Below are positions 7,443 through 54,400 of a stretch of 64,000 nt of DNA, piece after piece. Source of the DNA: Octopus vulgaris (Eukaryota). A program made the translations under genes and the position numbers. Positions within the stretch are counted from its first letter, which is position 1; the number at the start of each line of letters is the position of its first letter. The stretch is from the NCBI GenBank assembly GCA_951406725.2, contig OX597838.1:36642001-36706000 (forward strand). Reading direction: 5' to 3'. Below the pieces are notes generated by a model, which did no database searches, had not been told where the DNA came from, and saw nothing but the letters and a program-made list of their open reading frames with translations.

Positions 7443-7550
7443 TACTATGGCCATATCCCGTTGAAAGCATATGATCATTGAAGTTAAGCAACGTCGAGCC
7501 TAGTTAGTACTTAGATGGGTGACTGCTTGGGAAACCTAGGTGCTGTAAGC
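7443..7550 (+). pseudogene. 5S rRNA pseudogene with an internal deletion of about 10 nt
   Basis: CTATGGCCATATCCCGTTGAAAGCA...GATCATTGAAGTTAAGCAACGTCGAGCCTAGTTAGTACTTAGATGGGTGACTGCTTGGGAAACCTAGGTGCTGTAAGC matches invertebrate 5S rRNA including A- and C-box regions. The CCGGTTCTCGTCC segment is missing and there is no oligo-T terminator. Confidence 0.85.
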
Positions 7551-7562
7551 GTCACACATTTA

Positions 7563-11920: not shown

Positions 11921-12429
11921 ATAGTAAAAAAATTAGTAAATATTTCCTGCAGACCAGTGGTGGAAGTAAATGCAATATTGGAGCCGATTTGCAGGGTTTG
12001 GACTCATTAATCACTGAAATTAAGTACTGCACAGTTTTTTACCCTCTGCATTAGTTACCCTTACAGATCTACTAATGTCACAATAAACTGTGTAATGAGC
12101 CGAAACTGCGAGGATGATCTGGTTCTTGACTGAGGATAGAAAGCTTCGAATGACCCGTCCTTGTTTTTTTGTATTGTCTATCTGGATGTTTTGTTGTCCC
12201 TTTTTGTATCACCTAGTTGTCTGGGTGTTTTGCGTTCTTGTCCCATTTTGCATTTTATATATATATATATATATGTGTATATATATATGGTGGCATGTAA
12301 AAAGCACCATTCGAGCGTGATCATTACCAGCGTCGCCTTACTTGGGTGGTGGCACGTGAAAAAACATTCGAGCGAGATGGCAAGTAAAAAACACCATATG
12401 AGCATGGCCATTGCCAGTACCACCTGACT

Positions 12430-12600
12430 GTGGCAATGACAGGCATTGTTCTCCCAGTCAGTCTCCTGCATATCACAGGCCTTTAATGAGGACTTGACAC
12501 AGTCCTTAAATCGCAGCCTTGGTTTCTGATGGGGTCTCTTTCCATTCAATATTTCCCCATATAGCATCTGCTTAAGGATCCTGCTATCTTTGATTCTAAT
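12430..12600 (-). mobile_element. RTE (BovB-like) LINE C-terminal fragment
   Basis: RIKDSRILKQMLYGEILNGKRPHQKPRLRFKDCVKSSLK is a typical RTE post-RT motif. Confidence 0.8.
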
Positions 12601-12924
12601 AATATATACATTTAGGTAGGTAGGTAGATAGGTAGATAGATAGATAGATAGTTGCCCAAGGTGCCATGGAGTGGGACTGAACCTGGGAACCATGTGGTGG
12701 GGATGCAAGTATTTTACCACACGGCCACGTCATTCTATTTTCCTCACTGAGCTAACTTGTGCCTTCCATGCTGCATTTGCTTCAGATCAAAACATTTGCT
12801 ATGCATGAACCATAGTATTGACCCAACTATCCGTTGCTGTTGAACACTGCTTGTCACAGTGCGCTTCTGACTATGTTTTGATTGCCCCATTCTTTTGCAT
12901 CTTTACCCAAATCACTTGACTGAA

Positions 12925-30076: not shown

Positions 30077-30243
30077 AATTATTTAATATCAGGGTAATAA
30101 AGATTTTAGAAATTTTTACTACCTGTGACCTAGCGTATAGAAAAATTAGTCAATAGACTATATATTATTCATTGAAATATAGTGTACATTTAAACATGGA
30201 ATCCTTTGAAGGATTCCTCTTATGTGTTTAAATGTACACTGAA

Positions 30244-30246
<3 letters not shown>
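30077..30246. mobile_element. (TA)n-flanked element with terminal hairpin
   Basis: AGTGTACATTTAAACA...GGAATCCTTTGAAGGATTCC...TGTTTAAATGTACACT. Confidence 0.6.
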
Positions 30247-30287
<41 letters not shown>

Positions 30288-30289
30288 TA

Positions 30290-30762
30290 ATAAATATTAG
30301 GGAATAAATCCAAACTTACAGGGAAAAATCAGATTTAGGATTGAATCCAATTTTATAGTAAAATATTATATTATATTAAATTAGAGACAAAACCACTATT
30401 AGGCAAATCAAACAATGAAAGACTTAAGCCAATACATAAATTAATTTATATTATTTAAATATGTAACAATTATTAAAAAAATATAATTAATATCCACTAC
30501 GATCGATTCCTGGCTGCTGTCATCAAATTTTTCTTGGCGAGTTTTAAACAATTGTTTAAAACTCGCCAAGAAAAATTTCGAAACACCTGATGAATGACTG
30601 CGACCTAAAAATTTGATGACAGCAGCCAGGAAACGATCGTAGTGGATATTAATTATATTTTTTTAATAATTGTTACATATTTAAATAATATAAATTAATT
30701 TATGTATTGGCTTAAGTCTTTCATTGTTTGATTTGCCTAATAGTGATTTTGTCTCTAATTTA

Positions 30763-30772
<10 letters not shown>
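30290..30772. mobile_element. Large foldback element (arms of about 165 bp) carrying a hammerhead motif
   Basis: Arms at about 30366-30532 and 30607-30772 are near-perfect reverse complements; nested palindrome AAATTTTTCTTGGCGAGTTTTAAACAATTGTTTAAAACTCGCCAAGAAAAATTT. Confidence 0.8.
30584..30644 (+). ncRNA. Type I hammerhead ribozyme motif
   Basis: CAC-CTGATGA-[ATGACTGC..20 nt..GCAGCCAG]-GAAA-CGATCG-TA-GTG. The core is intact, stem III is palindromic, and stem II has two mismatches. Confidence 0.7.
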
Positions 30773-30802
<30 letters not shown>

Positions 30803-30849
30803 TGGTACATGTAACTCTCAGCTCTTGAGTCACTCTGGTACTTATGCTA

Positions 30850-30887
<38 letters not shown>

Positions 30888-30889
<2 letters not shown>

Positions 30890-31160
30890 GTAAATGTAAT
30901 ATGTGACAATTGTTCGGTAGCCATGATGAAACTCCGAGTTTTGGATGCTGAGGTGGAAATCCATGCCGCCATCACTTCAGTTATCCAGCAATCGGAATAT
31001 GGCGGAGTGGATTTCCACCTCAGCATCCAAAACTTGGAGTTTTATCATGGCTACCGAACAATTGTCACATATTACATTTACAGGTAATTTCCTGGCCAGC
31101 ATATTAAAAAATACCTTTAAAGGTTACAATTATAAACAACTTATAAACTTATTTATAAGT

Positions 31161-31162
<2 letters not shown>
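30888..31162. mobile_element. (TA)n-flanked foldback element (arms of about 85 bp)
   Basis: Arms 30888-30972 and 30999-31083, with a tail on the right. Confidence 0.75.
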
Positions 31163-31195
<33 letters not shown>

Positions 31196-31242
31196 TGTAA
31201 GTAAAGTGGCACTTGATAGATTAGACAGATTAAGAGACACCT

Positions 31243-50299: not shown

Positions 50300-50500
50300 A
50301 AACAAAATATTTTCTTTGCTTTGAGACCGTGACCTGTCCACTGACAAAATTCCATGCAGCACGGAGCTTTGTCAGTGAACAGATTGCTGTCTCAAAGCAA
50401 CGAAAATATTTTGACAAATTAAATTTAAATGTTGAAGTGAATCTAACAGTTATTTGCGTGTTTTTTAATGGCTTATAAACATCTTCTACATTGCGATTGT
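50300..50500 (+). mobile_element. Foldback element with hammerhead-like motif (50368-50418) followed by (TA)n
   Basis: Arms 50303-50348 and 50368-50413; TTTGTCA-GTGAACA-GATTGCT..AGCAAC-GAAA-ATAT-TT-TGACAAA. Confidence 0.6.
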
Positions 50501-53750: not shown

Positions 53751-54085
53751 CTACACTTTGAGAGTGTAGCGGGTGCTTTTTACGTGCCAATGGCACAGGA
53801 GCCAGTCAGGCAGCACTGGTTTCAACCATGCTCAAATGGAGCTTTTTACGTGCCACTGGCACGGGTGCCACTCAGGTGGCAATGGCATCAGCTGTGTGGC
53901 AAAATCATTTGGACATCGACTAAAATGCTTTATGGTGTTTATTTTGACTGGTACTTTACATGCTAAATTCAAATTCTACTCACGTCAATTTTACCTTTCA
54001 CATCTCAGTAGATGATAAAATAATGTCCCAGAATAAATATTATCAATTAACCTTCTTTTTCCCAGAGTTATTGGCCTTGTGCCTA

Positions 54086-54121
<36 letters not shown>

Positions 54122-54130
54122 GATAATAAT

Positions 54131-54400
54131 AAAGTTGAGATATATGACAGGTTAGCTTGGGAAGTTAAGCAGTTGAGGTCAATGAAAAAGGTAGCAGTAG
54201 TACCGATAATTGTCGGGGCCCTGAGAACAGTGAGCAAAAATCTTGAGAAGTACGTGGAACAAATAGGGGCTGCAATAATGGTGGAGCACTTGCAGAAAAC
54301 AGCACTGCTTGGAACCGCTCTAATACTCCGGAAGGTGCTCGAAAAATAAGAGGCGTTACCTTAGTTCACTGGTAATGAACAGCTGACACTGTAGTACATC
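54131..54400 (+). mobile_element. R4/Dong-like non-LTR retrotransposon 3' end (restriction-like endonuclease C-terminus) joined to (AAT)n
   Basis: KVEIYDRLAWEVKQLRSMKKVAVVPIIVGALRTV...LQKTALLGTALILRKVL*. Confidence 0.8.

Follow-up and report, generated by a model that had tools for sequence, protein, structure and literature searches.

Two probable element ends joined head to head

A palindrome of 406 bp in the 64-kb stretch of DNA analysed here (the window), which is AT-rich eukaryotic DNA laden with microsatellites and with repeats of cephalopod-like appearance, most probably consists of one end of a high-copy repeat in duplicate, as mirror images joined head to head 32 nt upstream of a hammerhead motif. 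The repeat end is likely the 5′-truncated 3′ end (pseudo-LTR) of an endonuclease-bearing (EN+) Penelope-like element (PLE), and the pair was likely inserted in one event at a TA-rich target. This architecture is an already described kind of insertion, of which the family is a further member, and we hold with high confidence that the element works like a PLE end. Family membership in the PLEs is quite probable; we infer it because no reverse transcriptase (RT) or endonuclease gene is linked to the repeat. EN+ PLEs encode a telomerase-like RT and a GIY-YIG endonuclease in a single ORF; Pfam scans of three unrelated window frames gave nothing above the cut-off, and no RT or GIY-YIG gene was tied to the family. 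The features are as follows, in window coordinates.

30367-30772, no strand: whole palindromic insertion, 406 bp; two copies of one element end, head to head, with their 3′ ends outward
30552-30772, + strand: right arm, 221 nt; 5′-truncated element end with the complete hammerhead motif, a putative pseudo-LTR
30367-30551, - strand: left arm, 185 nt; inverted copy without 36 nt, in which no hammerhead can form
30525-30578, no strand: perfect 54-nt palindrome, the tip of the large one, centred in AACAATTGTT
30571-30606, + strand: 36 nt that the left arm lacks, with AAAAATTT copies at either edge (30571-30578 and 30607-30614)
30584-30644, + strand: minimal type I hammerhead motif (stem I 30584-86/30642-44; core 30587-93 and 30630-33; stem II 30594-601/30622-29)
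30633-30640, + strand: palindromic stem III/loop III ACGATCGT, the predicted dimerisation site (dimer model in PMC4209133)
30700-30764, + strand: 3′-terminal ~65 nt, common to a far larger repeat pool, with a depth peak 49-80 times the depth over the hammerhead
30768-30799, no strand: (TA)n run adjoining the right end, the likely target; family loose ends behind 30760-64 are TA-rich
30281-30366, no strand: AT-rich stretch between the left arm and (TA)n at 30247-30280; flank, separate repeat or one-sided 'tail'

The roughly 400-bp palindrome of the original prediction is real. Its arms turn at a single spacer-less centre at 30551/30552, and the insertion contains just 221 nt of the element. The arms differ by two substitutions in 185 paired bases, compared with a commonest identity class of 90-95% among family contigs, which agrees with the earlier view of the insertion as young. 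The same view had included a nested palindrome of about 54 nt; a perfect palindrome of that length is present, but it is only the tip of the large one and not a separate element. The proposed retroelement-type origin gains support from the match to published PLE insertions: the hammerhead lies in a terminal repeat near the 3′ end (120-128 nt from it), an inverted, 5′-truncated copy stands head to head across a palindromic junction, and the insertion adjoins (TA)n at 30768-30799.

A search for a target-site duplication returned only trivial AT matches. The ~85 nt at 30281-30366 have no second copy in the window and, if part of the insertion, would form an unusually long one-sided tail and place the element within a split microsatellite. 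We also noted a second palindrome at 30885-31086, with 88-nt arms that are 94% complementary, a 26-nt spacer and no hammerhead match. One of its arms adjoins (TA)n at 30855-30886, and about 75 nt separate the other from (TA)n at 31163-31192, an arrangement like that of 30281-30799. More short imperfect palindromes lie beside (TA)n runs at 30181-30245 and about 50305-50420. Elsewhere in the window, a 5S rRNA-like match at 7443-7551 (65.8 bits, over the Rfam gathering score) is possibly a 5S-derived repeat, and the frames at 53948-54349 (+) and 12178-12729 (-) resemble C-terminal fragments of LINE proteins, although Pfam returned nothing above its cut-off for them.

A high-copy family with a shared 3′ terminus

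The stretch or part of it was present in 20 of 24 listed sequencing runs, none of them recorded as RNA, so that these matches are not evidence on expression. We analysed 4 of the 24 runs, all in the form of contigs and carrying three organism labels, and aligned them to the right arm only (30552-30765). The numbers of aligned contigs per run were 901, 2260, 840 and 208, with identities of 90-95% the commonest class in each. Depth over the hammerhead was 4-17 times that just upstream, and climbed another 49-80 times from the hammerhead to a 3′ peak at 30728-30743; contig depth is not copy number, so these values serve only as ratios, and they fit 5′ truncation and families sharing just the end equally. 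Contigs also drop rare variants.

We looked at where alignments broke off in 24 of the 169 loose ends. At 30584, the contigs continued into other upstream sequences ending in AAAC; at 30699-30701, into other repeats that have only the last ~65 nt in common with the family; and at 30760-64, in all four runs, into TA-rich sequence. These TA-rich continuations place the 3′ end of the family some 120-128 nt beyond the ribozyme, at a transition to (TA)n. The terminal ~65 nt (30700-30764), with their differing upstream sequences, are possibly a common cis terminus of several families. None of the contigs in the four runs spanned the whole stretch, and the locus itself is thus without confirmation in a second individual; the window holds no further copy of the family.

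Some of these observations would suit a palindrome that is itself mobile, either as a non-autonomous fold-back or MITE-like element or as a short retrozyme-like element moved in trans, in both cases with a captured hammerhead. The long, near-perfect inverted arms end near TA runs, other palindromes stand beside (TA)n in the window, the terminal 65 nt are common to many repeats that differ upstream of 30699-30701, and no ORF is linked. We nevertheless regard a mobile palindrome as unlikely. Most hammerhead-bearing copies appear to lack this centre, since depth drops 4-17-fold upstream of stem I and the loose ends there carry other upstream sequences, and the subfamily nearly identical to the window copy accounts for only about 1% of depth over the hammerhead. 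Against a retrozyme-like element in particular, the window has none of the tandem units typical of retrozymes and no direct repeat of the unit, and contains one hammerhead motif only. Two PLE ends joined head to head remain our preferred reading.

A gap between direct repeats in the left arm

The left arm is the reverse complement of the right arm minus 36 nt between two AAAAATTT repeats. The missing stretch (30571-30606) contains the stem I 5′ strand, CTGATGA and the stem II 5′ strand. The two substitutions in the left arm change the core GAAA to GAAT at 30506 (compared with 30633) and the base at 30393 (compared with 30746). Because family contigs in each of the four runs contain the 36 nt (contigs spanning 30556/7-30622/53) and neither substituted position is listed as variable, we conclude that all three arm differences were derived on the left arm.

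It is very improbable that the palindrome or the differences on its left arm arose as an assembly or polishing artefact. The location of 3/3 differences on one arm might be read in that way, although the asymmetry is not significant (two-sided p=0.25), as might the four runs, aligned to the right arm, in which no contig joint showing the 36-nt gap was listed. However, the 3′ end of the family is also where the inverted duplication stops, and the flanks differ between the two sides, unlike a fold-back read chimera; the gap has clean microhomology.

The original prediction placed the inversion breakpoint inside the ribozyme, by template switching at the hammerhead, and had the opposite arm ending within stem II. 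Followed from outside, the match between the arms does first break at 30607, inside stem II/loop II. It then resumes for 27 perfect bases up to the spacer-less centre, an exact direct repeat of 8 nt flanks the gap, and the turn lies 32 nt upstream of stem I. What looks like a stop in stem II marks one edge of the 36-nt gap, beyond which the left arm continues to the centre. A turn in stem II would require a second, separate palindrome, whereas one turn and one deletion explain everything. A breakpoint in the ribozyme is accordingly highly improbable, and the arms are better described as one head-to-head junction with a later or concurrent loss.

The hammerhead motif and its variation

The right arm reads CAC-CTGATGA-(36 nt)-GAAA-CGATCG-TA-GTG at 30584-30644 on the + strand, as originally seen. 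All positions of the conserved hammerhead core (C3-A9, G12-A14, A15.1-U16.1) and the NUH triplet (GUA) are present, and the triplet predicts the same cleavage site that had been expected, after A30641. Stem I has 3/3 pairs and stem II 6/8, with mismatches A30594.G30629 and A30597.C30626, and loop II is 20 nt long. The closing pair G10.1-C11.1 of minimal hammerhead ribozymes (min-HHRs), with its extra nucleotide after A9, is absent, and the window copy has A.G in its place. Stem III, ACGAUCGU, is a perfect palindrome with a predicted self-duplex energy of -10.0 kcal/mol and a monomer pairing probability of 0.004. The motif thus has the short palindromic helix III predicted to serve dimer formation, in line with its earlier assignment to the short-stem-III, dimer-type hammerheads.

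Taken alone, the motif has no folding advantage over shuffled sequences (z 0.09 and 0.37), and the hammerhead fold of the monomer has -3.5 kcal/mol compared with -7.8 for the minimum free energy structure. The palindromic hairpin, by comparison, has a predicted energy of -265 kcal/mol (z -39), and in a fold of 421 nt all 11 of the 11 hammerhead pairs scored had probability 0.0, as expected from the proposal that the full hairpin sequesters the ribozyme. With no sense partner in the window, and with a read-through transcript that would bury the motif in this long hairpin, the hammerhead is likely a silent passenger at the locus, where its cleavage is unlikely. Rfam returned no hammerhead match at the gathering threshold, nor among 30 matches with E up to 10 (30200-31200); miRNA-precursor matches at the palindrome were under the gathering score and reflect only the hairpin. 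An intron read by eye from GT 30639 to AG 30743 was rejected, as the joined frame would close within a few codons.

A minimal-hammerhead descriptor applied to both strands of the 64-kb window matched only at 30584-30644; the descriptor was composed after the motif was known, and in the control 2 of 100 block-shuffled windows had a match (mean 0.02). Scans of other sequences with the pattern gave 0 matches in viral contigs, 0 in genome contigs and 12 in metagenome contigs, of which 11 were chance matches and one was a clean minimal hammerhead at positions 205-258 of contig L002. This 30% GC metagenome contig has no further DNA similarity to the window, and its motif combines the same ACGAUCGU stem III with a 5-bp stem I, the extra nucleotide and a G-C closing pair. 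That the hammerhead-like motif of the window arose by chance in an AT-rich repeat is scarcely credible: the lack of an Rfam hammerhead, the weak monomer fold and the 11/12 chance matches to a looser pattern in bacterial-looking coding DNA would allow it, but the descriptor was found in just 2/100 shuffled windows, the core is constant while stem II varies, and the clean min-HHR of L002, an unrelated contig of AT-rich DNA, contains an identical stem III palindrome.

We scored variation in the four runs against the window copy, without haplotypes. The right-arm stretch had 11 positions with substitutions at >=3%, none of them in core positions C3-A9, G12-A14 and A15.1-U16.1 or the NUH triplet. 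In stem I, core and stem III together, 0/25 positions were substituted, compared with 8/36 in stem II/loop II (Fisher p=0.017), a soft test because several of the eight positions set the window copy against the majority and are not polymorphism. The 5′ flank had 0/32 such positions and the 3′ flank 3/121. The expectation of a core more conserved than its surroundings was therefore borne out in comparison with stem II/loop II, but not with the 3′ flank (0/25 and 3/121, p=1.0).

Within stem II, the 5′ strand ATGACTGC is nearly invariant in the family, with only A30597T at up to 4% of depth, and the 3′ strand is variable, with C30626G at 63-89% and G30629T at 20-44%. Since the 5′ strand is near-fixed and the variation sits on the 3′ strand, the 'repaired' stem II CTGGCTGC put forward earlier, which alters the 5′ strand, is not the family's form. 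G30629T would close stem II with an A-U pair, which 20-44% of family depth has at that position. Among 12 of the 20 insertion rows, we found +C behind 30583 (6-80% of depth) and +T behind 30644 or 30645; judged from the sequence, each could lengthen stem I, with linkage between the variants invisible in these data. A contig one letter off the window over 67-97 nt occurred in all four runs, at ~1% of depth over the hammerhead. It spans the whole of stem II in three runs, and there it has at least most of the letters peculiar to the window copy; the imperfections of the ribozyme therefore likely characterise a subfamily and do not reflect post-insertion decay.

A model for the insertion and its meaning

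In the mechanism that we propose, the element's endonuclease/RT would prime cDNA synthesis ~120-128 nt downstream of the ribozyme by target-primed reverse transcription, and synthesis would stop shortly upstream of stem I. The self-complementary AACAATTGTT could then allow fold-back of one cDNA or annealing of two, from which the inverted arm would arise. Slippage between the AAAAATTT repeats likely removed the 36 nt from the left arm, during copying or later at the unstable palindrome, an instability for which support is general (PMC7999016, in the part of that article available). Any activity of the hammerhead would require dimers, formed in tandem transcripts of the parent element.

A more specific version is possible, if rather doubtful. 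In it, fold-back at AACAATTGTT would have led to the inverted arm by copying of the first cDNA, and the RT would have slipped over the ribozyme's 5′ half. Two groups would also have spread regardless: a subfamily, present under three organism labels, whose hammerhead is weakened by a stem I of 3 bp and two mismatches in stem II, and a pool 50-80 times larger that has just the final 65 nt in common. The location of all three arm differences on the inverted arm points to such fold-back copying of the first cDNA. If it is true, the family would provide evidence at the scale of genomes that PLEs do not need their hammerhead to move and that the real cis signal is the terminal 65 nt.

The single locus is of little importance, being another remnant of an insertion type already described. 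The usefulness of the family is modest: it offers many natural minimal-hammerhead variants, which could test selection on cleavage, and many head-to-head junctions, which could separate one-cDNA fold-back from two-cDNA annealing. The construction of the inverted arm and the role of the hammerhead in PLEs are both still open in the available portions of PMC8557442, PMC11167929 and PMC3846280.

Comparison with known systems

Our search, which lay outside subscription papers, Repbase and Dfam, found no octopus or cephalopod hammerhead paper on this family, so its undescribed status is unproven. Neither hammerheads nor palindromes come up in the accessible passages of PMC13282606. The closest parallels in layout are the Pen2, Pen2a and Pen3a insertions of Adineta vaga, whose pLTRs of 193-218 bp have an inverted 5′ partner overlapping the direct one, and whose head-to-head junction palindromes were attributed to self-priming, with microhomology-mediated deletions (Arkhipova et al. 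2013, PMC3846280, accessible sections). The window insertion is like them in its arms (~190-220 bp there), inverted head-to-head copy, junction palindrome, microhomology deletion and AT-rich target. Unlike them, it consists of two ends only and has no intervening ORF; nor does it have a resolvable target-site duplication or a confirmed tail of 30-40 bp.

Metazoan PLE min-HHRs in pLTRs are mostly dispersed singles, with opposite-strand pairs 100-700 bp apart, and did not cleave as monomers, whereas dimers cleaved at a low level (Cervera and de la Pena 2014, PMC4209133, as far as the available text goes). The window motif shares their CUGANGA and GAAA core, long helix II (7-8 bp), short helix I and palindromic helix III, and differs in lacking the G10.1-C11.1 pair and in its 3-bp stem I and long 20-nt loop II. 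The closing pair is not universal, as 15/25 hammerheads of Hydra-clade PLEs have no pair at the core-proximal end of stem II, although 0/25 have A.G there (PMC8557442, excerpted).

Hydra-clade PLEs target (TA)n, one family has an attached inverted, 5′-truncated copy, and in 13 complete consensuses (one with a 5′-end motif left out) the hammerhead lies 25-148 nt from the 3′ end; target-site duplications of PLEs are often hidden by microsatellite targets (Craig et al. 2021, PMC8557442, in the sections at hand). The window insertion is like these elements in its (TA)n target and in a hammerhead-to-3′-end distance of 120-128 nt, inside their range. Hydra-1_Obim has a stem II that begins ATGTCTA, as does one family loose end. 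Compared by eye with the listed Hydra-clade hammerhead rows and their flanks, the sequence of this family is different, and assignment to the clade needs an ORF. Four short window motifs were absent from the available part of the PLE consensus file of the same paper.

In the Anolis Poseidon element PAc, internal RT start sites lie ~90 nt downstream of the ribozyme cut, the ORF starts at stem II, both strands are cut and extended at AT-rich DNA, and insertion in vitro was unaffected by ribozyme mutations, making the hammerhead dispensable there (Frangieh et al. 2024, PMC11167929, from the portion available). The window copy likewise has an ATG at 30594, the start of stem II, directly after CTGATGA. 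Unlike the PAc ORF, its reading frame closes at codon 5, and its 3′ end lies ~120-130 nt past the predicted cut.

Animal non-LTR retrozymes have the same non-coding nature, a type I hammerhead and a proposed derivation from PLEs (bioRxiv 10.64898/2026.07.22.740005, partial text). They are head-to-tail tandem arrays of units that each carry a type I hammerhead, an arrangement absent from the window, whereas the insertion described here is a head-to-head pair with one intact motif.
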